Source of the DNA: a virus
Taxonomy: Duplodnaviria > Caudoviricetes
Direction: 5' to 3' (one strand)
IMG/VR virus record: IMGVR_UViG_3300025503_000164
Span: 1 to 34,413 of that record
Length of the DNA stretch: 34,413 bases
Below are positions 3,551-24,426 of the stretch, one piece after another (the first letter of the stretch is position 1; every line of letters begins with the position of its first letter). The notes under the pieces were generated by a model. It was given only the letters and a program-made list of their open reading frames with translations, did not search any database and was not told the origin of the DNA. The translations under genes and the position numbers were made by a program.

Positions 3551-3884
3551 CGTCGTCGCTGGTGGGGGTGGCCTGGTCGTCGCGCTTGGGCGCGAAGAAG
3601 TCGACGCGCACGGCATGGAGCTCCCAGACGACGCGCTTGTCGCCGCTCTGGGCCTCGTACGACCGTTGGTGCATCGCGCCCGAGAAGCCGGCCTTGTCGC
3701 CCCTGTGCAGGTAGCCGGCGATCGCCTCGGCCGTCTTGTCCCAGGCGACGACGGTGAACCAGTCGGGCTCCTTGCCCCGGCCCTTGTCGACGGCGACGGA
3801 CACCGTGCAGATGGGCTTGCCCTCGCTCGTGTAGCGCAGCTCGGGCTCCTTCCCCAAGCGCCCGATGATGGCGGCGACGTTCAC
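3534..3884 (-). CDS. ssb: single-stranded DNA-binding protein
   Basis: 'IIGRLGKEPELRYT' and 'WFTVVAW' motifs; acidic C-terminal tail DDDEPPF. Confidence 0.95.
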   Translation of the reverse strand: MNVAAIIGRLGKEPELRYTSEGKPICTVSVAVDKGRGKEPDWFTVVAWDKTAEAIAGYLHRGDKAGFSGAMHQRSYEAQSGDKRVVWELHAVRVDFFAPKRDDQATPTSDDDEPPF

Positions 3885-5041
3885 GCGGCATCCCCCTTCG
3901 CCTTTCGGCCCAGGGCGTCCACGATGGCGCCCGTCTTGATCTCGCCGCCCTGGTCGAGAACGAACACCTGGGCCTCCTTGGCGAGCGCGATCACGTCCTT
4001 GGTGTCGAGACCGCCAACCTTCGTCACGCCAGCGCCCCGGGCCATGAGCACGACTTCCCAGTCGATCTCGGCCAGCGGAAGCGCGTCGAGGAAGGCGAGG
4101 GCCTGGCTGCGGCCGGTGATCTTGGTCGGAGGAACGATGGTCGCGGGCGGGAACGACGCCTCGGTGCCCTCGGGGGGCACCTGGGGCGCGTTGGAGGGCA
4201 GGGCCTGCTGGCCGAGCAGCACCTTGAGGGCAAGCTCCTTGGGCTTGCCCACGACGGTCTTGACCAGCTCGGCGAACGTCGCCACCTGGGTGTCGGACAG
4301 GTCGCCCGACTTGCGGACGTTGAAGCGGGCCAGGAGGATGTCCGTTGCCTTGTCGAGCAGGCCCAACTCGCCCAGGCCGTGGGCCGCCTGCTGGACGAGC
4401 GCGTTGCGGTCGACGGACGGACGCGGCGCGCGCGGCTCCTCGGCCTGGCCGCCCTCGGGCGTCTCGTCCTTGGCGTCGTACGGCGTGGCCTGCGCCATTT
4501 CGTCGGCGGTGTAGAGGCCGGACAGGTCCTGGGGGAACGCCTTGCGCAGCGCCAGGGCCTCCGCGCACTTGGCGATCATGTGGCTGCCGAGCTTCTTCCA
4601 CATGGGGTTGAGCCCTTGCTGACCGTACTGGGCGTACGCCTCGAACTCGGCGACCGCGTAGATGGGGGCCTGGAATCCTGAGCGCAGCACCCCGACCCGG
4701 GCGGCGTAGGGCATCGCGTTCTTGTTGGTCCAGATGTCCTTCCAAGCGCCATCCTCGCCGCACCACTCGGGCCCGACCTGTCCGGCGTACTGGCCGCTGC
4801 GTTCGGCGACCACGCGGAAGCCGTCGATGGTCGCCTGGGGCTTGGGCGGTACGCGCTTGCCGTGGGACAGGCGGGCCTGCGGCAGGTAGATCTGACGGGT
4901 GATGGGATCAAGACCGGTGCGTTCCGCGTAGGCGATGAGCAGGTTGAACTCGTCGTCGGTCGTGTCCGAGGGCACGCAGCTACGGCGGATCGTCGCCTTC
5001 TCGGTGTCGGTGAACTGTCGCCGCGGCTCCGGGGTGCTCAA
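3881..5041 (-). CDS. bet: Bet/RecT-family single-strand annealing protein
   Basis: 'TGLDPITRQIY', 'IDGFRVVAERSGQYAG' and 'MIAKCAEALALRKAFPQDLSGLYTADEM' motifs; TTG start coupled to the upstream stop. Confidence 0.93.
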   Translation of the reverse strand: MSTPEPRRQFTDTEKATIRRSCVPSDTTDDEFNLLIAYAERTGLDPITRQIYLPQARLSHGKRVPPKPQATIDGFRVVAERSGQYAGQVGPEWCGEDGAWKDIWTNKNAMPYAARVGVLRSGFQAPIYAVAEFEAYAQYGQQGLNPMWKKLGSHMIAKCAEALALRKAFPQDLSGLYTADEMAQATPYDAKDETPEGGQAEEPRAPRPSVDRNALVQQAAHGLGELGLLDKATDILLARFNVRKSGDLSDTQVATFAELVKTVVGKPKELALKVLLGQQALPSNAPQVPPEGTEASFPPATIVPPTKITGRSQALAFLDALPLAEIDWEVVLMARGAGVTKVGGLDTKDVIALAKEAQVFVLDQGGEIKTGAIVDALGRKAKGDAA

Positions 5042-6087
5042 GACGCTGCCTCCCTTCCAGCGATGGGCTTGACCGTCCAGCGCCAGTAGCCGCCCGCCTC
5101 GGGCGTGTACTTGGCGACCTGCTCGTTCGTGAGGATTCCGGCTGCCACCATGGCGTCCACGTCCGGGTCGCCCTTGGTCGGCACCCAGGTACGCCACGCC
5201 CGATGGGTCTCGGTGCGGATCGTGTTGGTGCCGTGGGTCTGCATGATGGCGGCGACCACCTTGCGACGGTCGTTGCGCTCCTGCTCGGCCGCCTTCTTGT
5301 GACGGCCGGCCACGCTCGCCTCACTCTCGACCTCGAATAGCGACGCGACGGCGGCGCCCATCGACGGGATGAACACCGCGTCGCGCTCCGCCGTGCCCTC
5401 CCAGCAGTGGCGGAAGAAGGGGCAGGTCTTGACCTCCCCCTCCGAGCGCCAACTGCACGGGAACGCCTGTGGGGCGTAGCCCTCCGGGATGGGCATGGGC
5501 TCGCCCAGGGACACCGAGTGCAGGAGCCCCTGGCCGTAGCCCAGCAGCTCCTTCACGCGGGCCTCGTCGTACACGACCGGGATGGACTTGACCTCGCCGG
5601 TCTCCTTGATCCGGTAGGCGATCTCAGCCGTGGCGCCCCTCGCGTTGCCCCAGAAGTGCAGGTACAGGAGCACCTGGTCGCGGTGGCTGTCGAACGGCAG
5701 ACGGTGTAGGTTCTTCTTGGTCGTCGACTTGGACTCGACGATGTGCTTGAGCGGCGCCACCCAGATGTCGATGTGGCCCGGTGAGCGCCCGAACGGGTGG
5801 GGTACCTTCACCTGCCGCATCACCTGCCGCGGGTAGAGGTCCTGCCAAATGCGGGCGATGTGGTCCTCGTGCTCGTCGCCAGACAGGAAGATCGACTCCT
5901 GCTCGAGCGTGGTCTGCTCGGAGTCGAAGTCGAGGATCCGAAGGCTGGCCTTCCGCAGGCACGAACCCAGCTCGCTCAGGCGGATGTCGTGCGGATCGAA
6001 GTCGGCCTGGTCGCGGCGCTCAATGAGCCGCTGCGCGTACAGGGCCTCCGTGGTCGGTGCGAGTGTCGTCGGTGCGGGTGTGCTCAC
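5038..6087 (-). CDS. PD-(D/E)xK exonuclease, Cas4/AddB-like with Fe-S cysteines, partner of Bet
   Basis: 'SELGSCLR', 'GHID...IVESKS', 'QVLLY', and a C-terminal 'C-x10-CPFFRHC'. Confidence 0.85.
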   Translation of the reverse strand: MSTPAPTTLAPTTEALYAQRLIERRDQADFDPHDIRLSELGSCLRKASLRILDFDSEQTTLEQESIFLSGDEHEDHIARIWQDLYPRQVMRQVKVPHPFGRSPGHIDIWVAPLKHIVESKSTTKKNLHRLPFDSHRDQVLLYLHFWGNARGATAEIAYRIKETGEVKSIPVVYDEARVKELLGYGQGLLHSVSLGEPMPIPEGYAPQAFPCSWRSEGEVKTCPFFRHCWEGTAERDAVFIPSMGAAVASLFEVESEASVAGRHKKAAEQERNDRRKVVAAIMQTHGTNTIRTETHRAWRTWVPTKGDPDVDAMVAAGILTNEQVAKYTPEAGGYWRWTVKPIAGREAAS

Positions 6088-6841: not shown

Positions 6842-7281
6842 GGCCAGAGTTGGCGGATGCGCTAGACCGCGAGAACATCCAACTGCGTTACCACACCTTC
6901 ACCGACCCCAACGTGTACGCGGTCGCCGCCATCATGCCAGCATCCCGCCACATCATCCTCCGACCAGGCATGGACAAGCCCCTGTCTGACGCGATGGTGG
7001 CCCATCAGATCGGCCACTTCGTGGACGGGTCGGTGGGCGACGGCATCTGCACGCCCCCTGACCAGCCCGTCAGCACGACCGAACTGGTGGCATGGTCCTA
7101 CGCCGCCCGCCTGCTCATTCCGTGCGTGCGCTGGAATGATCCCGCCAAGATCGACAAGTCCGTGCCCGAGCTCGCACGGGTGTTCGAGGTGCCGCCGTGG
7201 CTCGTGGTTCTCGGCCTCCGGTCGATGCTCTTGACACCGCCCCACGCAGGGCCGGTGCTAGTGACATCCCGCCCGGCGTGA
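6838..7281 (+). CDS. ImmA/IrrE-family metallopeptidase homologue with HQxxH in place of HExxH
   Basis: 'VAHQIGH' and 'ELVAWSYAARLLIP' match the family pattern except the catalytic Glu. Confidence 0.8.
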   Translation: MRPELADALDRENIQLRYHTFTDPNVYAVAAIMPASRHIILRPGMDKPLSDAMVAHQIGHFVDGSVGDGICTPPDQPVSTTELVAWSYAARLLIPCVRWNDPAKIDKSVPELARVFEVPPWLVVLGLRSMLLTPPHAGPVLVTSRPA

Positions 7282-8687
7282 CTCGTCGGGCCGCCCTGTA
7301 CGCTCGGGTCAGCACCGAGGATCAGGCGGATCGGGGAACGATCGCCACCCAGCTCGACTTCGCACAGAAGTACGCGGACCTGCACGGCTACGAGCTGGTC
7401 GACCGCTATTGCGACGACGGCATTTCGGGCACGGTAGCGTTCTCCAGGCGCCCCGAGGGTCAAAGACTCCTCGATGACGCGCGTGGACGGCGGTTCGACG
7501 TCGTGCTTGTGTACAAGCTCGATCGGGTAGGTCGACGGCTCAAGGTCATCCTCGACGCCGTAGACGCGTTGCAGCAGCTCAACGTCGGCATCGCCAGCAT
7601 GACCGAGAGTTGGGAGACTGCAACGCCAACCGGCGTGTTCTTGATGCAAATTCTCTCCAGCGTGGCGGAACTCGACCGAACAACGCTCATCTCGCGGATG
7701 ACGGCTGGCAAGCGACGGGTCGCCGCGAACAACAAGTGGCTCGGTGGCGCCATCCCGTTCGGCTACGAGCTGGGGGCCGACTCCCGCCTGGTGCCGAGTG
7801 ACGCCATCGTGCCCGACGGTCGCACGGAGGCCGAGGTCGTGCGATGGATCTTCGAGCAGGTGGCGGCCGGAGCCTCGGCGCATCAGGTAGCTCCGGCGCT
7901 CACCCAGGCGAGGGTTCCGACCGGCCAGGTGACGATGAAGCCTGGAGGGCCCCGGGTACGGCGCAACGACTCCGGGCTTTGGTGGCCCGAGCGGGTCGCC
8001 CGGACTGTGCGGAACACCATCTACATCGGCTCGAAGCCGTGGGGACGGACCGACCCCATCGAACGGTCCTACCCCGCGCTGGTGAGCGCGGAGGTGTGGC
8101 ACGCGGCCAACGCGCGCCTCGACGCCGCTCGCAGACCCAGGGGCGAGCGGTTCTACCTGCTGCGTGGGCTGCTCAAGTGCGGGGGCTGCGGACGGTCCTA
8201 CGTCGGCACCTACTCGCACAACGGCCACGGCCAGACGGTGACGAGGTACCGCTGCACCGGGAACAAGCCCCCGTACCGCTCATGCCGCTACCCGCTGGTG
8301 AACGCACGGAAGATCGAGGCGGCGGTGTGGGACGACGCCCGCCGCCATCTGCTTGAGAATCACCCCAAGCCCAAACCGGATGACACGGCCCGCCAGCTCA
8401 TGCGCGTGGAGAACGACCGCGCCCGCCTCCTCGAGCGCGAGGCGGCGGGGCTCATTCCGCCGTCCGAGGTGGATCGACGGCTGCGAATCCTGGCGCGGCG
8501 CGAGCAAGCCTTGAAGGCCGCGGTGCCCAAGGTGTCCGCGACCCCGGCAGAGGCAAGGGCGCTGCTCCTGGCAGGCGACCTCACGCAAGAGCAGATGCGC
8601 GACGTGCTGGTGCTGCTTTGTCGACGGGTGCTCGTCACCGTCGACCCCGAGACCCGGAAGTGGGCCTACGTCATCGAGTGGCGCTAG
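7278..8687 (+). CDS. large serine recombinase (integrase)
   Basis: Catalytic 'YARVST', 'DDGISG', 'KLDRVGR', recombinase domain 'PFGY', and zinc ribbon 'LLRGLLKCGGCG...YRC'. Confidence 0.96.
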   Translation: MTRRAALYARVSTEDQADRGTIATQLDFAQKYADLHGYELVDRYCDDGISGTVAFSRRPEGQRLLDDARGRRFDVVLVYKLDRVGRRLKVILDAVDALQQLNVGIASMTESWETATPTGVFLMQILSSVAELDRTTLISRMTAGKRRVAANNKWLGGAIPFGYELGADSRLVPSDAIVPDGRTEAEVVRWIFEQVAAGASAHQVAPALTQARVPTGQVTMKPGGPRVRRNDSGLWWPERVARTVRNTIYIGSKPWGRTDPIERSYPALVSAEVWHAANARLDAARRPRGERFYLLRGLLKCGGCGRSYVGTYSHNGHGQTVTRYRCTGNKPPYRSCRYPLVNARKIEAAVWDDARRHLLENHPKPKPDDTARQLMRVENDRARLLEREAAGLIPPSEVDRRLRILARREQALKAAVPKVSATPAEARALLLAGDLTQEQMRDVLVLLCRRVLVTVDPETRKWAYVIEWR

Positions 8688-8700
8688 CCGCGTGTATTAC

Positions 8701-8941
8701 TCTCTATCTCTATCTCTTTCTCTAGCGGGCAAACGTCGATCATGGGTCGATCAAACCTCGATCAAAACCGAGGACGGAAAACCCGCACCACGACAGGGTT
8801 TCCGCGTCGCGTGATCCCGGCTCGTCGACGGCCCGGGCGGGGAGAACACCGTGTTTCGAGCCGCGAACACCGTGGTCGTCCACGTGTTCACCGACGGTGA
8901 TCGACCCATGATCGACCCATGATCGACCTATGATCGACCCC
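8701..8941. repeat. iteron-like 11-bp phased repeats plus pyrimidine tract; candidate replication origin
   Basis: TCGATCA at 8736/8747/8758; inverted TGATCGACC at 8898/8909/8920/8931; GAACACCGTG at 8844 and 8865; CT-rich tract 8701-8723. Confidence 0.65.
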
Positions 8942-9589: not shown

Positions 9590-10126
9590 ATGATCCTTGG
9601 GCTCTCGGGCGGCATCGACTCGGCTGTGCTGTACGGCTGGCACAGGAACAAGGGCGAACGGGTGACGCCCGTCTACGTCCGCGCTGTTCGGCGCGGTCGA
9701 AACGTAGGGGCGGATGAGCGGGCCGCTACGGCAATCGCCCGTCATTACGGCGACGGCCTTGTGATCGTGGACGCGACGTGGGCGCGCAACGAGTACCTGA
9801 CGGTGCCGTTCGCTCTTGCGATGGCGACGCCCCCGGGAGAGGACTGCCACCTGGGCGCGTCGATGGTCGAGGGCGTCGACGCCTTTCAGCGCGAGCTCCA
9901 GGACGCGAAGGTGACGACGGCGGTCTCGGACCTCACCGGGTTCCCGATGCGGTTCGCCCGACCAACCTCCCGCTGGACGAAGGCCGCGCTCATCGAGCTC
10001 GGTCGACGGTTGAAGGTGCCGCTCGACCTGACGCACTCCTGCGCGCAGGACACGCCCTGCGGCGAGTGCGCCAAGTGCCTTGCGGTGGGCGCCGCCTGGA
10101 ACGAGGTCAACGGTGCAACCGCTTAG
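9590..10126 (+). CDS. divergent, short QueC-like PP-loop ATPase
   Basis: PP-loop SGGIDS, 'ARN', 'TKAALIELG', and Zn site 'THSC-x5-CGECAKC'. Lacks the YPDC motif. Confidence 0.8.
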   Translation: MILGLSGGIDSAVLYGWHRNKGERVTPVYVRAVRRGRNVGADERAATAIARHYGDGLVIVDATWARNEYLTVPFALAMATPPGEDCHLGASMVEGVDAFQRELQDAKVTTAVSDLTGFPMRFARPTSRWTKAALIELGRRLKVPLDLTHSCAQDTPCGECAKCLAVGAAWNEVNGATA

Positions 10127-10583
10127 CTTCGACGAGGCGGCGGGCAAGGTCGCGGAGGTGCAGGAGGGCATCATCGGCCTGCAGTTCGCCGAGGCCGACC
10201 TGCTGGCGTACCTGCTTGCCGAGTCCGGCAGCCTGTCGCAGGTCGCGGCCTCGACGGGCATGAGCCGGTATCAGGTGCGAACGCGCATCGCGGTGGCCGA
10301 GCGGTTCCCCGAGGCGCACCGGCATCCCACTCTGACCTGGCGGCACTACGAGCTGCTGCTGAAGGGCAACGCGGCGCCGGGCACCTGCTGCGAGGCAGCG
10401 GACAAGGATTTGTCCACGCGGGGCCTCAAGAAGCACATCGGCTGGGTGAAGGCGCCGCCGGATCTGGACGCGGACGAGCGCGTGCTTGGGAACGACGCTC
10501 GACGGTTCAACGAGCGGTGGGATGGCACGGCCCGAGCCGAGGTGACGATCAAGCACCTGGAGGCGAGTGATGGCGCAGAGTAA
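10113..10583 (+). CDS. putative DNA-binding protein (LmbU-like motif)
   Basis: HTH-like segment followed by 'VAERFP...R...LTWRHY'; GAGGT SD before GTG. Confidence 0.6.
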   Translation: MQPLSFDEAAGKVAEVQEGIIGLQFAEADLLAYLLAESGSLSQVAASTGMSRYQVRTRIAVAERFPEAHRHPTLTWRHYELLLKGNAAPGTCCEAADKDLSTRGLKKHIGWVKAPPDLDADERVLGNDARRFNERWDGTARAEVTIKHLEASDGAE

Positions 10584-11145
10584 GCCGACCGGCCTCGTCA
10601 TGCAGACGATGGCGCTCGCCGATCTCGTCCCCGCCGACTACAACCCGCGCAAGGCGCTGCAGCCGGGCGATGCGGCCTACGAGCAGCTCAAGCGGTCGAT
10701 CCTCACGTTCGGCTACGTCGACCCGATCATCTGGAACCGGCGCACCGGGAAGGTGGTCGGCGGTCACCAGCGACTCTCGGTGCTCAAGGCCCTGGGCCAC
10801 ACCGAGACCGAAGTGAGCGTGGTCGACCTGAACGAAGAGGACGAGCGGGCGCTGAACATCGCCCTGAACAAGGTCGAGGGTGAGTGGGACATGGAGCGCC
10901 TGCGGATGGTCCTGGCAGACCTGGACGCGGCCGGGTACGACCTGGACCTGACCGGATTCTCGGCGAAGGAGCTGGAGAAGATCCTTGCCCCCATGCCGGA
11001 GCTGGACGAGGGTGCGGGCGACGGTTCTGGTTCTGGGCCGGCGGGTATCGTCATCATCGTCACGGTGCACGACCAGGCCGACGCCGAAACCCTGAGCGCG
11101 TTCTGCGAGGGCAAGGGCTTCGAGTGGCACGTCCAGGGGGCGTAG
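10570..11145 (+). CDS. ParB/Srx N-terminal domain protein (phage DNA-modification-associated type)
   Basis: 'PADYNPR', 'LKRSILTFGYVDPIIWN', 'VVGGHQRL', 'NIALNK..GEWD', 'LTGF'. Confidence 0.9.
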   Translation: MAQSKPTGLVMQTMALADLVPADYNPRKALQPGDAAYEQLKRSILTFGYVDPIIWNRRTGKVVGGHQRLSVLKALGHTETEVSVVDLNEEDERALNIALNKVEGEWDMERLRMVLADLDAAGYDLDLTGFSAKELEKILAPMPELDEGAGDGSGSGPAGIVIIVTVHDQADAETLSAFCEGKGFEWHVQGA

Positions 11146-11147
11146 GC

Positions 11148-11882
11148 GTGGACGTACGGGTGGATGTGGCCTACGACCTCGGGCCGAAGGTGAACACGCT
11201 CAAGACCCAGGCGGTCAAGGACTCGTTCGGCATCGACTTCGAGATCGGACGGCGGGTGATCGTCGACGGTCTCAAGTTCACCGTAGAGCCGGGCAGCATC
11301 GTGATGTTCACCGGGGAGAGCGGCAGCGGCAAGTCGTCGGCGATGCGCGAGGCTGGCAGGCAGCTCGGGGCGGTCGACATCGACGGCCTGGATCTGGGCG
11401 ATCCCGACGCCGCGCTGGTCGACCTCATCCCCGGGGACGTGAAGGCGACGGTTGGACTGCTCAGCCAGTTCGGGCTGGCCGAGGCGTTCCTGATGCTCCG
11501 AAGGGTGAGCGAGCTGTCGGACGGCCAGCGGTACAGGTTCCGGCTCGCCAAGGGCTGGAGCCACGGCGGCGCGCTCATGGCCGACGAGTTCACCGCCAAC
11601 CTGGACCGCATCACGGCCAAGACCATCGCGGCCAACCTGCGCAAGCAGCAGCTGCGCGAGCCCGAACGGATCTGGCTGGTGGCGACGACGCACCAGGACA
11701 TCATCGAGGACCTGCAGCCCGACGTCTTGGTGGACCTGACCCGGGGTGAGGTGGGAAAAGGACTCCCCGGAGGCGGCCGATCAGCTTTGCGGCTGAACTC
11801 GACCTCACCTCCGGGGCTAAGGCGGACTGGCCGTTCTTTGCTCGGTGGCATTACCTCGGGCACGGCATCGGCATCGTCCTAG
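11148..11882 (+). CDS. soluble ABC-type ATPase; zero-frame product and N-terminal part of the ABC-GNAT fusion
   Basis: Walker A GESGSGKS, signature LSDGQ, Walker B 'MADEF', H-loop 'ATTH'. No membrane subunit nearby. Confidence 0.88.
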   Translation: MDVRVDVAYDLGPKVNTLKTQAVKDSFGIDFEIGRRVIVDGLKFTVEPGSIVMFTGESGSGKSSAMREAGRQLGAVDIDGLDLGDPDAALVDLIPGDVKATVGLLSQFGLAEAFLMLRRVSELSDGQRYRFRLAKGWSHGGALMADEFTANLDRITAKTIAANLRKQQLREPERIWLVATTHQDIIEDLQPDVLVDLTRGEVGKGLPGGGRSALRLNSTSPPGLRRTGRSLLGGITSGTASASS

Positions 11883-12331
11883 GGCTGTACGTCCTGTGGC
11901 ACGGCGACCGGCCGATCGGCTGCGTCGTGTTCGGGCCGCCCGCTCTCCAGTCGCGCAACCGGCACATCGCGTTCGGGCGCACCCTGGCGCCGCAGGTGCT
12001 GAACAAGCACTTCGTCAACGTGAGCCGGGTGGTGCTCGACCCGACCTACCGCGGGTGCGGCCTCGCGCACCGGATGCTCCGCACGGCCTGTGAGCTGTAC
12101 GCGGACAGGAAGGGCGTCAGGTACTTCGAGGCGTTGTCCTCGATGGCGCACCTGAACCGCCTGAACGCCGCCGCCGGCTTCAAGACGGTCGGCACGTCGA
12201 ACATGCTCAAGGCCCAGACGGCGAAGGGATCGTGGTGGTCGAACAAGGGCTACCAGGTCAAGGGCAAGCACCGCGTGCTGGTCTACGAGATCTTGGACAT
12301 CCAGAGCGCCCGAACGGGTCCGTCCCGGTAG
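11753..12331 (+). CDS. GNAT (Mom-like) acyltransferase domain reached by -1 frameshift at GGGAAAA
   Basis: The -1 frame opens right after TGA 11747-11749 and reads KRTPRRRPISF...WPFFARWHYLG...SRVVLDPTYRGCGLA. No conventional start codon precedes the WHYL motif. Confidence 0.82.
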   Translation, partial: GKRTPRRRPISFAAELDLTSGAKADWPFFARWHYLGHGIGIVLGLYVLWHGDRPIGCVVFGPPALQSRNRHIAFGRTLAPQVLNKHFVNVSRVVLDPTYRGCGLAHRMLRTACELYADRKGVRYFEALSSMAHLNRLNAAAGFKTVGTSNMLKAQTAKGSWWSNKGYQVKGKHRVLVYEILDIQSARTGPSR

Positions 12332-12603
12332 GCGTCGGTGTAGTACCGCGACCAGTTCTCCACGACGCCCTCGGGCGTGTTGCCGTGGGCCGAAGGCGGA
12401 ATCGCCCGCACCGCGGCGACGATGCTCGGGTAGTCGTCGATCCGGTAAATCTTTTGCAGCAGGCGCTTCCGACCGCACATGAACAGCACCTCGTCGCCGG
12501 CCTCGTACGTGGCCGCCTTGAGGGCGGGCCGGAACTCAACCTGCTTGATGCCCTGCTCCATGAGCTCGAACGGGTGGGCCCGGAGGAATAGCTGCCTTCG
12601 CAT
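12283..12603 (-). CDS. ASCH-domain protein
   Basis: 'F..M..GIKQVEFR......GDEVLF' matches GxKxxExR; 3' end overlaps the GNAT convergently. Confidence 0.8.
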   Translation of the reverse strand: MRRQLFLRAHPFELMEQGIKQVEFRPALKAATYEAGDEVLFMCGRKRLLQKIYRIDDYPSIVAAVRAIPPSAHGNTPEGVVENWSRYYTDAYRDGPVRALWMSKIS

Positions 12604-12636
12604 TCCGGCATTCTGGCACGGCTGGGTGGCCATGAC

Positions 12637-12662
12637 AAAGGGGGCGCCGCAGCGCCCCCCTT
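12637..12662 (-). terminator. terminator-like hairpin just upstream of the ASCH gene
   Basis: GGGGGCGC-4 nt-GCGCCCCC followed by TTTG on the minus strand. Confidence 0.5.
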
Positions 12663-12689
12663 CGGTCGCCTGGTCGTCTGTCACCTCCC

Positions 12690-12930
12690 CTGGATCGTTG
12701 TCCCCTCGGGCACATGGTCGCGCACGCACGACCGGGCGGCGAACGCGGGCAGGCGACGGCCCGACCGACGGTTACGCGGGGTCGAGGGTTCGCGGGGTCG
12801 GGCTCGTCGGATTGAACGGGATCGCGTGATCGACGGCGCCGATCGAGCCCCGACGGTCCTGATCGGGGGGGGCGCACGATCCATCGCGTCGACGGTCCGG
12901 ACGCGACCTTGCCCCCTTGCACGACGAGCA
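12690..12930. repeat. structured intergenic element, copy 1 (most diverged)
   Basis: Non-coding; shares GGATTGAACGGG, GCACGCACG, TGATCGACGG and GTCGACGGTCC with the other copies. Confidence 0.45.
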
Positions 12931-12936
12931 CGACGA

Positions 12937-12964
12937 AGGGGCGCCCCCTGTCGGGGACGCCCCT
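12937..12964 (-). terminator. intrinsic terminator-like hairpin
   Basis: AGGGGCG/CGCCCCT stem just after the stop at 12976; tail TCGTCGTG on the minus strand. Confidence 0.6.
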
Positions 12965-12975
12965 CGACGTTGGAA

Positions 12976-13227
12976 TCACGCGGCGGGTATAGGGCGCAGC
13001 ACCTTCCAACGCGGGCCGGGAGCGTCGGCGACGGTTACCTCGAGCCCCCAAACCTTGGCGAGGTTCAGGTACTCGCCAAGCTCGTCCTCGTGGACCGATC
13101 GGGCCTGGCCGTCAGCGACGCACAGGAGCAGCGCGAGCCGACGCACCTCGGCCTGCGCCGCCACGGCCTCGATTGCGGCGTCAGCGATGCGGGCGCCGAT
13201 GCGCTCCTTCACCTCGACGGGGGTCAT
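12976..13227 (-). CDS. hypothetical protein (83 aa)
   Basis: ATGA coupling with the upstream gene; GC3 bias. Confidence 0.7.
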   Translation of the reverse strand: MTPVEVKERIGARIADAAIEAVAAQAEVRRLALLLCVADGQARSVHEDELGEYLNLAKVWGLEVTVADAPGPRWKVLRPIPAA

Positions 13228-13478
13228 CCGAAAACCACCCGGCTGACTGGGAACCGAACGGACGTCAGCCAATCCTTGATCGTCTCGGCGGCGCGCTTCG
13301 CCTGGGCAGGACGCGGTGCGTCCCAGCCCCTGGCAGGCTCAACGCGGATCACAGCGCCGGCGGGCTCCCGGGCGTCGGTGAGCGTGGTGAACATGACCCG
13401 CGTGTCGTCGACGTAGACGAAGCCGTATGCCACACCCAGGGAGCGGCTGATGCCGCGCACGTCGATCTGCGCCTTCAT
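13224..13478 (-). CDS. hypothetical protein (84 aa)
   Basis: GGAGGG SD and ATGA coupling. Confidence 0.72.
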   Translation of the reverse strand: MKAQIDVRGISRSLGVAYGFVYVDDTRVMFTTLTDAREPAGAVIRVEPARGWDAPRPAQAKRAAETIKDWLTSVRFPVSRVVFG

Positions 13479-13783
13479 GCCTGGCCCTCCAATTCGAAGA
13501 TGACGCTGATCCGGTACTGGCGACGGTTGCGCTCGGCCCACTCGACGGCTGCCGCCAGGGCGTCCGCGTCCTCGCCCTTCACCATGGCGCCCATGCGCGA
13601 GCCGTCCTGATGGGCGACGGCCGTGAGCTGGCTGTCGCTGACCATGGCGACGAGGTGCGTGACGCACAGCGGACGACCGCCCCACCAGATCTCGGTGGGC
13701 GCGTAGCAGCGCGGCGTGTCGCAGCTCTCGTCCTCGTCCGGGATGCGCGTGGCCCAGTGGTCGTAGGTGGCAAACCCCTGCAT
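13475..13783 (-). CDS. hypothetical protein (102 aa) with C-x4-C...C-x2-H metal-binding motif
   Basis: AAGGGGG SD; first gene of its cassette. Confidence 0.72.
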   Translation of the reverse strand: MQGFATYDHWATRIPDEDESCDTPRCYAPTEIWWGGRPLCVTHLVAMVSDSQLTAVAHQDGSRMGAMVKGEDADALAAAVEWAERNRRQYRISVIFELEGQA

Positions 13784-14090
13784 GATCGACCCCCCCTTCA
13801 TCCGGGACGGTTGGAGGGTAGGACGCCCCGGGGGACGGTCTACAGACGCGCCTTGATCGACGGCCGCACACCCGATCGACGGATGCGGGGCGCGCTTCGG
13901 GGCACTACGCCGGGCGCATGGGATCGACGCGAAGGGGATGATCCGAGGGGTCGACGGTCCCCCCGGGAATCGCGCCTGCCGTGGTGCAAGGGGGCGCCCT
14001 GCGTTCGCGTCCCCGTTCGCGGGGGGAACGTGCGTCGACGACGGCGAGGACGCGTCGAAACCGATTGGCGCCAACGTGTCACGAACACGA
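13784..14090. repeat. structured intergenic element, copy 2
   Basis: TAGGACGCCCC (13819), GGGCACTACG, CCCCGGGAATCGCGCCTG...GCAAGGGGGCG (13961-13996); long fold-back 13784-13943. Confidence 0.6.
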
Positions 14091-14093
14091 CGA

Positions 14094-14113
14094 AGCCCCC
14101 CGTGCGGGGGGCT
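14094..14113 (-). terminator. intrinsic terminator-like hairpin
   Basis: AGCCCCCC-gtgc-GGGGGGCT, 20 nt after the stop at 14133. Confidence 0.62.
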
Positions 14114-14132
14114 CCGGCGGGCGCGGCGCCCG

Positions 14133-14255
14133 TCAGGCCGGGACGATCACCTCGCAGGCGGCGCAGAACGTCTGCCCCTCGCTGTTCAACATCGTGGGAT
14201 ACCCGCAGATGTGGGTGCCGTTGAACAGCTCGACCGCCTCGATCTCCGGTGCCAT
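14133..14255 (-). CDS. 40-aa zinc-ribbon-like peptide
   Basis: AAGGGGGG SD; HxC...CxxC pattern; has its own terminator. Confidence 0.65.
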   Translation of the reverse strand: MAPEIEAVELFNGTHICGYPTMLNSEGQTFCAACEVIVPA

Positions 14256-14720
14256 CGTGTCGCCCCCCTTGCGCGTCGTTCGATCCCGGGGCAAGGGTCG
14301 CACGCCCCGTCGACGGTCCCCGAGACGCGCCCACGACGATGCCCCGCGACCTGGTCGACGGCCGAGGGGGCGGGCGCGACCATGCCCCCGGGATCGAACG
14401 GGCACTACGAATCCCGCGCATCGCGGGGGGACGCGTGCGCGTGCGTGCGGGGGTGTCACAACAGGCTTGTCCGGGAAGATCGTGATCCAGACCGCGTGCG
14501 CGTGCGTGCGGGGGTGTCACCCTTCGGGGGCATCGCGCCTGACGCGAGCAAAGGGGGCGGGGCGCGTCGTCCCTGCGAACGCGGGGGGAACGTGCATCCT
14601 CCCCTGCGTCGGACGCGAGGGCGCCCCCTAGCTTGCGGGGATCGTTCCCCCTGCGAAGCAATCCCGACAGGGGATCGTGACGGGGGAGGAACGTTCCGCC
14701 CTCGAAGCGATCGCTCGACG
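14256..14720. repeat. structured intergenic element, copy 3
   Basis: Colinear with copy 4; long hairpin 14277-14400; contains the 28/33/28 insertion. Confidence 0.7.
14432..14520 (-). CRISPR. single-spacer CRISPR-like unit (28-bp repeat, 33-bp spacer, 28-bp repeat), orphan
   Basis: Perfect direct repeat CGCGTGCGCGTGCGTGCGGGGGTGTCAC at 14432-14459 and 14493-14520, 61-bp period. The spacer starts with G on the minus strand. The repeat is not a canonical palindrome and no cas operon is in the window. Confidence 0.5.
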
Positions 14721-14741
14721 AAACGCCCCCCGCAGGGGGCG
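14721..14741 (-). terminator. intrinsic terminator-like hairpin
   Basis: CGCCCCC-4 nt-GGGGGCG followed by TTT on the minus strand, after the stop at 14757. Confidence 0.6.
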
Positions 14742-14756
14742 CCCGCCGGCCCCGCG

Positions 14757-15203
14757 TTACGCGGTCAGGTCCTCCTCGCGGTACGGCGGAATGTCCAGCA
14801 TCGCGGACAGGCTGGCGGCACAGCCCTCAGCCTGCGCCTGGGTGAGCCCGGTGGCGAGCACGACGCCTTCGACGCCGACGCCGTTCTGTGCCACGCCGAG
14901 ACGGTCGCCTTCCACGGTGCCGACCTTGACCACGGACCATTCGGGTGCCTCAGCGGCGCGTTCCGTGCGGTTCGGCGACAACGCCACCTGCCAGTAGTCG
15001 ACGCCTTGCATGTGGGGCGTAGGCCAGTGGGTGGCGATCACGACGCGATCGTAGAAACGAGGGTCGTACCCGCCCCTGGTCTGGACCTCTGCGGCGACGG
15101 CGGGCAGGTCGCGTCGTTCGACCGAAGGCGGCGGGCACTCGTTCGGCCTCAGATGGTGCCGGACAAGGCGGGACATGACATCGTTCAGGTCGCTGCGGTT
15201 CAC
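14757..15203 (-). CDS. hypothetical protein (148 aa)
   Basis: GAGGAGG SD before GTG; GC3 bias. Confidence 0.75.
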   Translation of the reverse strand: MNRSDLNDVMSRLVRHHLRPNECPPPSVERRDLPAVAAEVQTRGGYDPRFYDRVVIATHWPTPHMQGVDYWQVALSPNRTERAAEAPEWSVVKVGTVEGDRLGVAQNGVGVEGVVLATGLTQAQAEGCAASLSAMLDIPPYREEDLTA

Positions 15204-15225
15204 GCGGGTACCTCCTCGTGTTGGG

Positions 15226-15501
15226 TCAGATGCAGCAGGTGCCGGGGCAGCCCTGACGCCCGCAGGCCATGCAGGGAACGTGGCCGGGCATGGTGATGGT
15301 GCGCCGGTTCTGGGCGAAGCGGGCGCGACGCGGGCCGGGGGTGCAGGGGCGGTAGACGTCGCCTCCCATCGAGGCGATCCACCCGGCGCTCTCGCGCCCG
15401 TACATGACGACGGGTTGGTAGCAGAGCCCGCCGGGGCCGACTGCCGTCGGGATGCCAAGCGTGTCGGCGTGGGCCTGCGCTCTGGCGGCCAGCGGCGTCA
15501 C
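15226..15501 (-). CDS. hypothetical protein with Cys-rich C-terminus
   Basis: GTGA coupling; 'CMACGRQGCPGTCC'. Confidence 0.65.
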   Translation of the reverse strand: MTPLAARAQAHADTLGIPTAVGPGGLCYQPVVMYGRESAGWIASMGGDVYRPCTPGPRRARFAQNRRTITMPGHVPCMACGRQGCPGTCCI

Positions 15502-15662
15502 GCCGGTACCGTCGCGCCGTCGATCTTGTCCAGCAGGTCCTGGTACGCCTCGAGCGCGCCCCGGGTCTCGGCGCGTTCCACGCGGCTGTCCAGCTCGTCG
15601 ACGTCGGCCTCCAGATCCGAGATCTGGAGCAGGATGTAGGCGCGCACCTCGGCAAGGGTCAT
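15498..15662 (-). CDS. small acidic helical protein (54 aa)
   Basis: GAGGAGG SD; MTLAEVRAYILLQISDLEADVDELDSRVE...; below the size of the ORFs listed in the track. Confidence 0.72.
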   Translation of the reverse strand: MTLAEVRAYILLQISDLEADVDELDSRVERAETRGALEAYQDLLDKIDGATVPA

Positions 15663-15749
15663 CGTGGTCAGCCTCCTCGGATGTGGGGAGTTGTGGCCTC
15701 CCGCGACGGGCCGATTCTGGACCCGTTTCGGCCGTGGCCGGCGGCCTCG

Positions 15750-15947
15750 TCAGGCGGGCAGGGTGCAGGTGCTGGCGGCCTGTACGCCTCGGAGCGAGTG
15801 AAACGGCGTGCCGAGCGAGGCGTTGTTGAACCGGACGAAGCGCGCCACGTCCTCGGCGTCGGCGTGGAAGTGGACCGGTCGCATCGGGCAGCAGGTGCAG
15901 CTCACGCGGGCCTGCTCCGGGGTAGCGGGTGCGGTTGCCGTGGTCAT
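15750..15947 (-). CDS. hypothetical protein (65 aa)
   Basis: AGGGGGG SD; CTCC motif; first gene after element copy 4. Confidence 0.6.
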   Translation of the reverse strand: MTTATAPATPEQARVSCTCCPMRPVHFHADAEDVARFVRFNNASLGTPFHSLRGVQAASTCTLPA

Positions 15948-16485
15948 CGGTCGTGCCCCCCTGCGGCGTGTCGTTCGGGTCGGGTCAAGGCTAAGACGCC
16001 CCCTGGGGCGTGCCACGACGCGCCTCGGACGAGGGCGGCGGGGTCGCGCAGGGGTGCCGGGGAACCCTCGGGCATGCCCCCTGGCTCGCACGATCCGACG
16101 AATCCGTGGGAGTTCGAACACGTCCCCGTGCGCGTGATCGCCCCCGTCCCCCCTGGGGAATCGCGTAGGACGCGAGCAAAGGGGGCGCCACGCGTTCGAC
16201 CCCCGACGCACGCACGAGAACGCGTCGACGGGGGATGAACCGCGTGGTGCCCCCCTAGCTTCGCGGGAACGATCCCCCTTGGGGATGCGATGATCGACCC
16301 CCTTCGGGGAATCGCGCAGGACGCAAGCAAAGGGGGGTAGGTCGCGTCGAACGGGGGATCGCGGGGGAATGTACATCCCCCCGATCAACGTCGCGTGGCG
16401 CCCCCTTTCTCGGGGTCGGGGGGATCGTGGGCACGCTCACGATCCGATCGGGAGATCGTGAGCGAACCCGCAAGCCGGGGGACGA
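15948..16485. repeat. structured intergenic element, copy 4
   Basis: TAAGACGCCCC (15992); internal duplication GGGGAATCGCG.AGGACGC.AGCAAAGGGGG (16151-16185, 16301-16336); GGGGATGAACCG (16231). Confidence 0.7.
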
Positions 16486-16515
16486 GAAAGGGGAGGGCGC
16501 GTGCCCTCCCCTTTC
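16486..16515 (-). terminator. intrinsic terminator of the DUF932 gene
   Basis: Perfect 13-bp stem GAAAGGGGAGGGC-gcgt-GCCCTCCCCTTTC. Confidence 0.75.
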
Positions 16516-16524
16516 CCTGGGGGC

Positions 16525-17760
16525 CTACCGGAGCGCGAGGAGAAACGAGGTGGCGCGGTCGACCAGGGGGTGGCCGTCGACGACCTTCTCGAACCGCCGG
16601 TCCAGCGACACGTCGGATTCGCGCTTCACGTTGGCGTGGTCGACGTAGTCGGCGACCGCGTTGATCGCGCCCCAGGCGGTGCCCCGGTAGTTGGCGAGGT
16701 CGTCGACGTTCAGCGCCTCGGTGAGGGCCACACGGCGCTCGTTCACCGTGTCCTTGCGGCGGTCCGTCCCCTTCTTCGGCTCCGGGAACAGGGTGGCGAC
16801 CAGCGCGTCCCAGGTCTTCGGTGTGACCTTGATGGCGGCCATGATCTCGGCCTGGGCCTGTAGAGCGGCCATGTAGGTGTTGGTGAGTTCGAGGGCGCGG
16901 GCGGCCTCGGCCATCTTGTCCGACAGGCCCGAGTAGTGGCGGGCGGTCCAGGAACGGGAGGCGGTGGCGCAGGCGAGGTTCAGGGTGTTCTGGCACACGA
17001 TCCGGATGGGGGTGGTGCCGACCTGCAGGGCGCCGGAGCCGTCGTGGGAGTTCGAGATGAAGATGTAGGTGTCAACGGGGTCGTCGAGCAGCTTCGTCTG
17101 TTCGGCCATCTTCGCCGACACCCACACCCGGCGGCCGCCGTGCAGGTAGCCGGCGGTGGATGGGATGCACGCGCCGCCCAGGAGGGTGTCGAGCCAGTTG
17201 AACGCCTCGCGGTTCTGGAGGGCGGTGAACTGGCGGCCCACGATGCCGAGCACCGAGTTGTCGTCGGAGCGGGTGGTGGCGTACTGGCCCTCGATCTCGA
17301 GGTGCGTGCCGTCGACGTCGACGAGCAGCGGGCGCTTCACGACCGCCCAGTCGAGGCCGGCGAGGGTCAGCACCTGCTCGGTGTCCTTCGCCTCGGACAC
17401 GTCGGCGCCGATGTCGAAGATGTTGCGACGGAGATTGGAGTCGTACAGGCGGAAGTTTTCGAGTTGGGCGCGGCGGGCTTTGCGGGCGGCGCGGCGCTCC
17501 CGGCGCTTCGCGGCGCGGTCGGCGAGGTCCGCGTTGCCCTCGACGGGCGACGCGTCCGTGTCCTCGATGCCCTGCGTGTCGGTGGCGTCGGGCACGATCT
17601 CGGAGCCGGCGAGGATGTCCGCGACGGTGGTCGGGGCTTCGGCGGCGGCCTCGGGGGTCGTGTCGGTTGGCGGAGCCGTCTGGGCCTCGGGCAGGGTCAG
17701 CTCGACCTTCGCGGTCTCGGGGGTCGTGTTCTGCTGGGCCTTCGTGCTCTTGCGTGCCAT
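16525..17760 (-). CDS. DUF932-family phage/plasmid protein with acidic low-complexity N-terminal extension
   Basis: 'AGLDWAV', 'LQNREAF', 'TAGYLHGGRRVW', 'NSHDGSG', 'PIRIVCQNTL', 'RGTAWGAINAVADYVDH'; GAGGAGG SD. Confidence 0.9.
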   Translation of the reverse strand: MARKSTKAQQNTTPETAKVELTLPEAQTAPPTDTTPEAAAEAPTTVADILAGSEIVPDATDTQGIEDTDASPVEGNADLADRAAKRRERRAARKARRAQLENFRLYDSNLRRNIFDIGADVSEAKDTEQVLTLAGLDWAVVKRPLLVDVDGTHLEIEGQYATTRSDDNSVLGIVGRQFTALQNREAFNWLDTLLGGACIPSTAGYLHGGRRVWVSAKMAEQTKLLDDPVDTYIFISNSHDGSGALQVGTTPIRIVCQNTLNLACATASRSWTARHYSGLSDKMAEAARALELTNTYMAALQAQAEIMAAIKVTPKTWDALVATLFPEPKKGTDRRKDTVNERRVALTEALNVDDLANYRGTAWGAINAVADYVDHANVKRESDVSLDRRFEKVVDGHPLVDRATSFLLALR

Positions 17761-18260
17761 TGTCGGTTGCCTCCTCGATTTTGGGGGGTCGACGCGGGTC
17801 GATTGGATCGTAAGACGCCCCCACAGACCCCTGTAGATCAAGGGCGGACGATAGCGCATCGGCACGCGGATTGACGCGACGTGGTTCCCCCGCACGCTGT
17901 CGGGCTCGAACGGGCACGACGAATCCCTCGGATTCTCAGGGGACCCCCCTGACCCTTCATTCCATGGCGTGTGGCGCGCACGCACGCGACCCCCTGCGCG
18001 ACCCCCATCCACGGGGCGATTGCCACTTGCCCCCGCGACCCCCCTTGAACGCACGACCAGGGGAATGCAACCCCCCCCTAGGACGGCAGCCAAGGGGGGT
18101 AGGCGCGTTCGATTCCCCCTGCGTGATAGATCATGCGTCCCTCCCCCCGTAGGCGAGGGCAAGTGCTTCTCGCCCCTAGACGACTCGCACCCCCTTTCCC
18201 CGCGCGAGCGATGCCATCGCGCGGGACCGTTTGCCTCTGTCGCCACGCGACGACCCGACC
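17761..18260. repeat. structured intergenic element, copy 5
   Basis: TAAGACGCCCC (17811); GGCTCGAACGGGCACGACGAATCCC (17903-17927) matches 14391-14415 at 23 of 25 positions. Confidence 0.62.
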
Positions 18261-18265
18261 CTCCC

Positions 18266-18320
18266 TCGATCACGTCTCGATGAAAGGTCGATCAACCCTC
18301 GATGAAAGGTCGATCAAGCG
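18266..18320. repeat. second 11-bp-phased iteron-like array
   Basis: TCGAT(C/G)A at 18266/18277/18288/18299/18310; same core as the 8736-8941 arrays. Confidence 0.7.
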
Positions 18321-22062: not shown

Positions 22063-24426
22063 TTGGCAGAGAACAACGGCCTGATCCAGCGCATCCTGTC
22101 GTGGTTCCAGCGCGCCTTCGCCTCCGAGACCGAGGATCCGAGGCGGCAGGCCACCGACACCGGCCTGCAGATCCACACGTCGCCGGAGCTGTGGCCGTAC
22201 GAGATGTACGTCCTCGAGTACGACCGGCGCATCATCATCAGCGACATCCACCGCATCCTGCAGGCCGACCCGAGGACGTGGCGGGCGCTGAACAAGATGG
22301 CGGCCGGTGCGGTTCGAGGCGGCATCACGATCAAGGTAATGCCGCAGCCGGGCACGCCGGACAGCGTGGCCGTGAAGGCGCAGGACGTGCTCGACCAGCT
22401 CCGCAAGGACACCCGCATCGACGCCAAACTGCCGTCGTGGTCGCGGATGCTCCTCGCCGAGGGCGACCTGTTCCTGGAGGTCGTGGCCGTGCAGGACGGC
22501 CAGTTGTTCCGCATCGTGAACCTCAAGCGCATCCCGGCCATCACGATGCACCGGAACGACGACATGCAGGGCAACTTCCCCGACATCCAGGCCGCGTTCA
22601 CCCAGATCGACCCGATCTCGCTCGGGCCGCTGTCGGACTTCAAGCTGTGGCAGGTCAACCACATCCGCTGGAACCACGAGGACGGCGAGCGGTACGGCCA
22701 AAGCCAGCTCCTCCAGATCCGCGGCTACGCGAAGAAGCTGGCGATGGCCGACGACGACCTGGTGGTCAGGCGGCGCACCCGCGCTGCCCTGAGACGCCTG
22801 CACGTCATCGGGACACCGGAGAACCCCGGCGACGAGGCCGAGATCGCCAAGTACAAGGCGCGCAACTCCTCGGCCAAGTACGGTGCGGCGTCGGTGGTCA
22901 CCGACTACTACTCGAACGGCACCACCAGCATCGTGAACCTGGACGGCGACGCCAGCCTGGGCGACATCGCCGACGTGGAGTACCTCAACGACCTGCTGTT
23001 CCTGGGCGCGGGTGTGCCGCAGGGCCTCCTCGGTGCGGCCTACAAGGTGAGCCATGACGTCCTCGACCGCCAGCAGAGCGAACTGTTCATGGACCAGGAG
23101 ACCGTGACCGACGTGCTGGAGAACGGTGACGGCGGCGCGTTCTCGGGCCTGCGGTCGATCATGGAGTTCGCCCTGTCGCTGGCCGGGATCAACCCCGACA
23201 GCGTGTCCATCAGCCTCACCTGGGCGGAAAAGAGCCAGGAGACCAAGCAGGCGCGGTTGTCGCGGGTCATCGACGCCCGCTCCTCCCAGCCCGACCCGCT
23301 CATCAGCCGCAAGACGGCGCTGGCCGTCATCGCCGAGGACTTCGGCATCGACGACCTGGACGCGGAGCTCAAGCAACTCGCCGACGAGCTTGCCGAGGAG
23401 CGACAGGCCCAGCAAGCGGCACAGACGGCGGTCAACCCCGTACACGGCTCGCCGATGCCGCAAAGCCGCGGCGCCCAGATGGCCGGCGAGAAGTTCACTC
23501 CCGACGCTACCGGCGCACCGCAGATGGACGCGACCGATCCCCAGGACGCCTTCGGCGGCCAGGTGGGGCTGTACTCGCGTCACATGGTCCACCTCGAACA
23601 CACCATGGCCGAGGGCGTGCATCGGTACTTCACCAGCGCGGCGCAGGGCTTTCTGCGCGAGACCGGCCTGGAAATGTACCTGGGTGGCGACCGGCTCAAC
23701 CCGTACCCTCCCACGGCGAACCCCTGGCCGCTGGAGGACGCGGAGGACGACGAAGGCGAGGCAGCGGATGACGACCTTGACTGGTCTGACGCTGAGCCGC
23801 CCGACACCGAGGCTGCGCCGCAGGCCGTGGCCGCCCTGGGCGATCAGGTGCTCACGGCAGAAACGGCGCGCTGGCTCGAACGTCGCTGGCGGGCTGTCGT
23901 GAGCCGTCACCGGCCCGGGTTCGTGCAGACCGTATCGGCCTTCCGCAAGGCAGCCGCGAACGAGGGCGGCAAGGAGGGCAACCGTCAGGTCGGCCAGGGC
24001 GTGAACGTGGTCAACCCCGAGACGATCCGGCTCCTCAGCGATGAGGCCGGGGAGCGCGTCAAGGGGATCGACCACACCACCCTGACCAAGCTGCGGCACG
24101 CCCTCTCGACGTCCTACAAGAACGGCGCCCGCCTGTCCGGTCCCAACGGCTGGCTCGAGGCCGTGATCCAGGCGATCGGCCCCGGGACCAACGGCTACCG
24201 CTCGCGGATGATTGCCCGAACCGAACTGGCCGATGCGTACGGCAAGGCCAACCGGTCGGCGTGGCAGGACGCAGGTGTGGAGCGTTGGACCTGGGTGGCG
24301 ACCATCGACAACCGCACCTGCCAACGGTGTCGGGCGCTCAACGGCCAGACCTTTCCCATCGCACACGACATGCCACCCCTCCATCCTCAGTGCCGATGCT
24401 TCGGCATGCCGGTGGTGGGTCCGTGA
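22063..24426 (+). CDS. portal protein fused to MuF/SPP1 gp7-like minor head domain
   Basis: GGAGGTG SD and TTG start; portal-like N-terminal part ('HIRW...YGQS.L'); C-terminal 'IARTE...W....D.RTC..C..LNG...PPLHPQCRC'. Confidence 0.88.
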   Translation: MAENNGLIQRILSWFQRAFASETEDPRRQATDTGLQIHTSPELWPYEMYVLEYDRRIIISDIHRILQADPRTWRALNKMAAGAVRGGITIKVMPQPGTPDSVAVKAQDVLDQLRKDTRIDAKLPSWSRMLLAEGDLFLEVVAVQDGQLFRIVNLKRIPAITMHRNDDMQGNFPDIQAAFTQIDPISLGPLSDFKLWQVNHIRWNHEDGERYGQSQLLQIRGYAKKLAMADDDLVVRRRTRAALRRLHVIGTPENPGDEAEIAKYKARNSSAKYGAASVVTDYYSNGTTSIVNLDGDASLGDIADVEYLNDLLFLGAGVPQGLLGAAYKVSHDVLDRQQSELFMDQETVTDVLENGDGGAFSGLRSIMEFALSLAGINPDSVSISLTWAEKSQETKQARLSRVIDARSSQPDPLISRKTALAVIAEDFGIDDLDAELKQLADELAEERQAQQAAQTAVNPVHGSPMPQSRGAQMAGEKFTPDATGAPQMDATDPQDAFGGQVGLYSRHMVHLEHTMAEGVHRYFTSAAQGFLRETGLEMYLGGDRLNPYPPTANPWPLEDAEDDEGEAADDDLDWSDAEPPDTEAAPQAVAALGDQVLTAETARWLERRWRAVVSRHRPGFVQTVSAFRKAAANEGGKEGNRQVGQGVNVVNPETIRLLSDEAGERVKGIDHTTLTKLRHALSTSYKNGARLSGPNGWLEAVIQAIGPGTNGYRSRMIARTELADAYGKANRSAWQDAGVERWTWVATIDNRTCQRCRALNGQTFPIAHDMPPLHPQCRCFGMPVVGP

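Follow-up and report, generated by a model that had tools for sequence, protein, structure and literature searches.

An exact 28-33-28 unit in prophage non-coding DNA

How does a short repeat-spacer-repeat unit come to lie in the non-coding DNA of a prophage, and is it a working CRISPR array or the trace of a single integration event? We address this question in a window (the whole stretch of DNA analyzed, 34,413 bases, GC 68.5%) that makes up an entire IMG/VR provirus record with a CheckV completeness estimate of 39%. On the plus strand of this window, the 28-mer CGCGTGCGCGTGCGTGCGGGGGTGTCAC occurs twice with 28/28 identical positions and a start-to-start spacing of 61, and its two copies (R1 and R2, Table 1) enclose the insert AACAGGCTTGTCCGGGAAGATCGTGATCCAGAC. 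The bases flanking the copies differ on both sides (14431 A vs 14492 C; 14460 A vs 14521 C). Within the record, the 28-mer is present exactly twice and the 33-mer once, even allowing up to 3 mismatches, which bears out a preliminary description of this DNA that had claimed a 28-bp duplication with mismatched flanks around a unique 33-bp segment. Given the base composition of the window, 2.6e-9 exact 28-nt pairs are expected at a spacing of 150 or less, and the longest short-range repeat reached 11–13 nt in 20 first-order Markov simulations compared with the 28 nt observed; a chance origin of the direct repeat is excluded. No further exact short-range repeat of this kind was present elsewhere in the 34.4-kb window.

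The unit lies in a distinctive part of the phage. From about 12.3 to 18 kb, small minus-strand genes are separated by long non-coding stretches sharing two modules, P and U, which recur upstream of small minus-strand early genes. The insertion is located between P and U of the second module copy, upstream of a 40-aa Cys-rich ORF whose 53-aa TTG-start form (14133–14294) has a GC3 of 0.91. This ORF matched no family above the curated cut-off, and the small genes neighboring the unit gave no anti-CRISPR or other named function in Pfam or PHROGs. Module P exists in four paralogous copies (the one beside the unit and those at 13957–14036, 16148–16195, and 16299–16382) and contains a palindrome, TCGCG-N5-CGCGA, within C-run/G-run arms, with compensatory changes in 4 of its 21 predicted pairs. 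Judging by these features, P may represent a cassette with operator or promoter function, or alternatively an RNA hairpin; a sigma-70-type promoter was looked for in the P and U modules and none was found there.

Table 1. Coordinates and strands of the features discussed (positions in the window)
Feature	Position	Strand	Description
RecT	3881–5197	(−)	
Serine recombinase	7197–8687		
40-aa Cys-rich ORF	14133–14255	(−)	Upstream region carries the insert
U module	14389–14431; 17901–17933	(−) at the unit	Second copy at 88% identity; partial copies elsewhere
Q	14405–14432	(−)	28-nt hairpin segment abutting R1, part of U module; stem 6 bp CCCGCG/CGCGGG, loop 3 nt
R1	14432–14459	(−)	Downstream copy of the 28-nt duplicated target; exact repeat
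Insert ("spacer")	14460–14492	(−)	33 nt, GTCTGGATCACGATCTTCCCGGACAAGCCTGTT on minus strand; unique in window
R2	14493–14520	(−)	28-nt target copy, upstream in minus-strand orientation; GTGACACCCCCGCACGCACGCGCACGCG on minus strand
P module	about 14520–14603	(−)	Conserved, non-coding; directly upstream (minus orientation) of insertion
DUF932 protein	16525–18273	(−)	
Portal	22063–24426	(+)	Fusion with C-terminal Mu F-like domain
Replisome organiser, small and large terminase, tail sheath			Encoded in window

The paralogous copies are laid out alike from P to U but are 61 nt shorter, and the other three P modules all lack the insert, as the preliminary description had reported for a paralogous site. 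One paralog has a 10-nt core in common with the 28-mer, which for this reason seems to be native there. No relative with an empty site was found in viral_contigs, in genome_contigs, or by blastn against phages. Specifically, the 28-mer had 0 exact matches in viral_contigs, and blastn of 12500–16500 against phages gave no match. The DUF932 protein was recovered at 2 viral_contigs loci with only 33–34% identity, while its 153 pattern hits in genome_contigs and the 13 terminase pattern hits in viral_contigs included 0 confirmed cases, and a degenerate P-module pattern gave 0 matches.

The insert is an exact copy of part of rplP from the probable host

A scan of metagenome_contigs with the 33-mer picked up two contigs, namely the 81-kb contig that holds the window (L006) and L007, part of a 135-kb contig. 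The insert is 33/33 identical to L007 10001–10033, inside rplP, the gene for ribosomal protein L16 (Ribosomal_L16, E 4e-55), in an operon ordered S19-L22-S3-L16-L29-S17-L14. The protospacer that the preliminary description had proposed to search for is thus present. The exact identity between the window and L007 spans 34 nt (14460–14493; extension left 0, right 1; E 2.5e-12), with one ambiguous base in this shared 34-mer, and the second-best match between the two is 17 nt. The 33-mer had 0 matches in genome_contigs and 0 in viral_contigs. Against plasmids, blastn of the unit gave a weak match only, in which the spacer part aligned at 88% over 34 nt to a Subdoligranulum record, with no match for the 28-nt repeat.

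On the minus strand, the insert consists of the rplP codons for VWITIFPDKPV of L16. The segment had been described as foreign coding DNA encoding TGLSGKIVIQ; it is indeed coding, but that plus-strand peptide is in the wrong frame, and the sequence is most likely the host's own rplP rather than foreign.

L007 is probably the lysogen's own chromosome, as suggested by depth, GC, and tetranucleotide usage. The sequencing run examined, X1, is a hypersaline lake metagenome (Logan contigs) and probably the source sample of the window, so that the depth and assembly checks made in it do not amount to an independent sample. The stretch was found in this single run, a DNA run, with no RNA run listed. 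The eight longest exact pieces of L007, among 142 records, had depths of 52.5, 56.2, 58, 53.3, 52, 59, 54.4, and 54.2; summed bin depths along L007 are higher where conserved genes of other organisms pile up. GC is 68.5% in the phage window and 68.9% in L007, and their tetranucleotide correlation is r = 0.96, compared with 0.82 and 0.80 for two unrelated viral loci. The host itself is probably a high-GC Gram-positive bacterium, as judged from phage protein matches, an S3 alignment, and GC content. The phage DUF932 protein and terminase matched mainly actinobacteriophages (<40% identity among the matches listed, <60% for all matches), and S3 aligned best with PDB chains that we take to be of Bacillota and mycobacterial type and clearly worse with one presumably of Bacteroidota type. 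The insert provides a sequence-level link between the prophage and a contig of its probable host.

The second assembly (X1) supports the same structure. The left flank with R1 and the insert, and the insert with R2 and the right flank, lie on long unitigs with depths of 53.4 and 55.2. Both phage unitigs end inside the insert, where the 34 nt at 14460–14493 form a unitig of their own at depth 100, joined by two rplP unitigs (1,057 nt at depth 53.3 and 3,221 nt at depth 52). No empty-site branch was seen at the unit in the X1 Logan contigs. Although this is a metagenome assembly and a 34-mer common to two contigs is able to mislead assemblers, two assemblies concur, the junctions lie within long unitigs at 53–55x, and the 34-mer has a summed depth of 100, making an assembly or chimera artefact extremely improbable.

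An AAG adjoins the donor and the junctions lack microhomology

The preliminary description had predicted AA before the first G of the insert on the minus strand. On the rplP sense strand, which corresponds to the minus strand of the window, AAG stands directly 5' of the 33-mer. The motif therefore abuts the insert on the predicted strand, but it is one base off the canonical type I-E register for a 33-mer and falls into exact register if a 34-mer is counted. The latter corresponds to an alternative and equally valid parse of the unit, in which 27 bp are duplicated around a 34-nt insert starting with the G of the PAM. For type I-E of E. coli, the insertion of 33-bp fragments with the G of AAG as first residue is described, and "near-AAG" slippage, in which spacers are selected 1–2 nt off the AAG, is documented in the same system (PMC4027179). 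AAG occurs in L007 at a frequency of 0.0125 per position; with two registers and two orientations allowed, the probability of finding it by chance is ~0.05, and its presence is only moderate support for integration by Cas1-Cas2. Microhomology is 0 nt at the left junction and 1 nt at the right one, which fits an integrase better than template switching. The period of 61 compares with 61–62 in the E. coli K-12 array, a real type I-E array.

The duplicated 28-mer shows no clear likeness to known CRISPR repeats

The 28-mer had been described as resembling type I-E repeats. We found the likeness to be no better than background: ~5,000 of the ~137,000 28/29-mers in the window outscore it against the E. 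coli I-E repeat (taken from L008), a reference that may differ from the host's own repeat. Nor does the 28-mer form an RNA hairpin (z +1.5, with a fold worse than 192/200 shuffles) or have a 3' handle-like end, and Rfam gave nothing at gathering score and no CRISPR-DR match for the repeat at E values up to 10. A canonical type I-E array has adjacent cas genes and a palindromic repeat of 28–29 nt with a Cas6e hairpin. The hairpin is absent here, and the window has no cas genes: Cas1 was not found in it, and a scan of 47 ORFs against Pfam detected no Cas family.

The hairpin segment Q, which abuts R1, has a fold z of −2.05 and a layout that recalls a I-E repeat. Its score against the E. coli I-E repeat is 4, with 142 window sites scoring higher; it has no Rfam CRISPR-DR match, and its hairpin is not conserved in the paralogous modules.

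Separately, a hairpin in the first P module copy (14002–14030, minus strand, CGTTCCCCCCGCGAACGGGGACGCGAACG) scores 8 against the E. coli I-E repeat, the joint best in the window; since two unrelated sites tie at 8, this score is not significant.

A single off-target integration is the favored origin

We consider it rather probable, though far from settled, that the unit arose in one event, in which type I-E Cas1-Cas2 integrated a self-derived prespacer off target. The unit itself shows an exact 28/33/28 arrangement, an exact rplP donor, an adjoining AAG, and next to no junction microhomology; from these, we infer Cas1-Cas2 as the agent. Under such a scheme, a prespacer of ~33 nt would have been cut from the lysogen's rplP beside the AAG motif. 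Cas1-Cas2 would then have inserted it into prophage non-coding DNA through attacks staggered by 28 bp, and the 28-bp target would have become duplicated when the gaps were repaired. The resulting unit might have been tolerated because the duplicated 28-mer would be no working repeat. As the 28-mer lacks the hairpin needed for crRNA processing, its transcript would probably remain unprocessed and the rplP match would be harmless, leaving the unit presumably inert. The reading as a natural spacer-integration scar, already proposed in the preliminary description, has thereby gained a donor protospacer and an AAG on the strand that had been named, and has lost the repeat likeness and, most likely, the foreign origin of the insert. 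Weighing against Cas1-Cas2, the 28-mer is not detectably I-E-like, has no hairpin and no Rfam CRISPR-DR match. In addition, no further scars were found in the 34.4 kb phage window or in 20 kb of L007, leaving a single scar in 54 kb of phage and L007 sequence.

The same properties of the 28-mer favor, in turn, repair without CRISPR. A staggered break or template switching would have produced a 28 bp fill-in and captured a 33–34-bp filler from rplP, for example through Ku/LigD end joining. No host cas genes were seen, the 28-mer lacks repeat-like character and includes a short low-complexity stretch of CGTG type that might promote slippage, and the AAG is possibly due to chance (p ~0.05). This route would, however, require three rare events that together yield exactly the I-E numbers of 28 and 33, and the 0–1 nt of microhomology at the junctions speaks against template switching. 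We also know of no process that gives 28-nt staggered breaks at such a site, which counts against non-CRISPR repair. On balance, we regard it as unlikely, while still deserving weight.

The unit could instead be a functional one-spacer mini-array of the phage, transcribed from the upstream module and directing host Cas proteins against rplP for shut-off or regulation. The 33/33 match with AAG in the interference position is compatible with such a role, as is the location of the unit just downstream of a conserved, possibly regulatory module. There are also precedents, since some phages carry arrays whose spacers are directed at transcription and translation genes of the host (PMC7162821) and virus-borne mini-arrays have been described (PMC6858448). 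Nonetheless, the repeat belongs to no repeat family and has neither hairpin nor 3' handle-like end, and the target is a bacterium, with no rival virus involved. Moreover, the rplP target is intact and at equal depth in the lysogen, which implies that any guide is silent or inert in lysogeny. Function as a mini-array is accordingly a decidedly improbable reading.

A more elaborate version holds that the promoter-proximal non-coding module acts as a landing pad for the I-E integrase of the host and that the unit is a working guide, transcribed on induction and sending the host's Cascade-Cas3 against rplP. We regard this combination as a long shot. If true, the enzyme with which the host stores its immune memory would have written a weapon that the phage uses to shut the host off.

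Very improbable indeed is capture of the unit from a genuine host array, by recombination at a solitary repeat of the phage, in which case the 28-mer would be the host repeat. Solitary repeat units in viruses have been proposed to permit recombination with arrays (PMC10651486), and the period of 61 is array-like. That period, however, suggests type I-E, whose repeats are palindromic, and the 28-mer is not; a paralogous module has part of the 28-mer, suggesting native phage sequence; and no other X1 contig matched the 28-mer at 85% likeness, a weak argument given that 28 nt is short.

Other candidates were rejected. The site lies within the prophage, and a serine-integrase att remnant is not expected to leave a duplication. 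Cos ends that were filled in do not suit a site 6 kb from the terminase, and we know of no cos overhang of 28 nt. An antisense RNA against rplP is incompatible with the strand of the neighboring genes, from which a sense sequence would result.

Relation to known CRISPR-linked elements

The unit is most likely a further case of a kind already known, off-target integration giving rise to neo-CRISPR units. The evidence for such integration comes mainly from E. coli in which Cas1-Cas2 is overproduced. Nivala, Shipman, and Church (2018) reportedly described non-canonical Cas1-Cas2 integration and neo-CRISPR units for the E. coli type I-E system. Here as there, a non-CRISPR target has been duplicated over the length of a repeat on either side of a spacer-length insert whose donor is elsewhere in the cell, and the unit shares the I-E numbers (28/33) and an AAG beside the donor. 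Unlike those reports, the present case is natural, lies in a prophage, and has a spacer from an essential host gene, rplP; its site does not detectably resemble a I-E repeat or leader, and the integrase is known only by inference. Neo-CRISPR units spawned by off-target integration are described for E. coli, and two other species have yielded circumstantial cases (as cited in 10.1101/148544 and PMC7054753).

Several other elements share single features with the unit. The virus-borne mini-CRISPR arrays of Medvedeva et al. 2019 (PMC6858448) likewise present a repeat-spacer-repeat structure in a virus without cas genes, but as described there they have host-type repeats and spacers against rival viruses, whereas our unit has an unstructured repeat and a spacer that matches bacterial rplP. 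Solitary repeat units and Racr elements (Camara-Wilpert et al. 2023, PMC10651486) are also small, non-coding, CRISPR-linked prophage elements. In that account, Racr elements are found just downstream of promoters, mimic the host repeat, and have no spacer; our unit is abutted by the hairpin segment Q, and neither the 28-mer nor Q is significantly repeat-like. As in the work of Al-Shayeb et al. 2020 (PMC7162821), a spacer on a phage genome corresponds to a translation gene of the host, although the examples presented there are true arrays in huge phages, often with cas genes, in contrast to a single unit with a non-repeat. Finally, the protospacer start one base off the AAG register recalls the near-AAG slipped spacers of Shmakov et al. 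2014 (PMC4027179), which, in the experiments described, came from canonical arrays with cas expression induced, unlike the unit studied here.

Read as a scar of off-target integration, the unit has consequences beyond this phage. Natural scars are few and bear on the birth of new CRISPR arrays, and in this instance the donor, PAM, and target duplication are all readable from one metagenome. A perfect, PAM-flanked rplP spacer would kill in a real array. Its survival at a non-repeat site suggests that off-target sites can record the self-sampling of adaptation that autoimmunity erases from true arrays.

Other features of the phage record

We also noted several features away from the unit. A 349-aa protein (5038–6087, minus strand) adjoins RecT. 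Its PHROG matches include "CRISPR/Cas system associated" (E 3e-14), a Cas4-domain exonuclease, and a RecE-like exonuclease, while a Pfam search gave no match; from these profiles, it is probably the exonuclease partner of RecT. In Campylobacter, phage Cas4-like proteins have been linked to the acquisition of host-derived spacers, according to PMC4283603.

The gene next after the portal encodes a 954-aa protein (24433–27297, plus strand) with a weak prohead-protease match, possibly a fusion of protease, scaffold, and capsid. Short tandem iterons occur beside the integrase end (8898–8940 and 8736–8768) and upstream of the DUF932 gene (18266–18317), with units of TGATCGACCCA repeated ~3.9 times and 11-mers of the TCGATCAAACC / TCGATGAAAGG type; they are candidate binding sites that may serve a repressor or an origin. 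On the plus strand at 9590–12331, a run of genes encodes a QueC-like C-terminal piece, a ParB-like nuclease/methyltransferase-type domain, and an ABC-type ATPase, and may represent a putative DNA-modification or host-takeover cluster.
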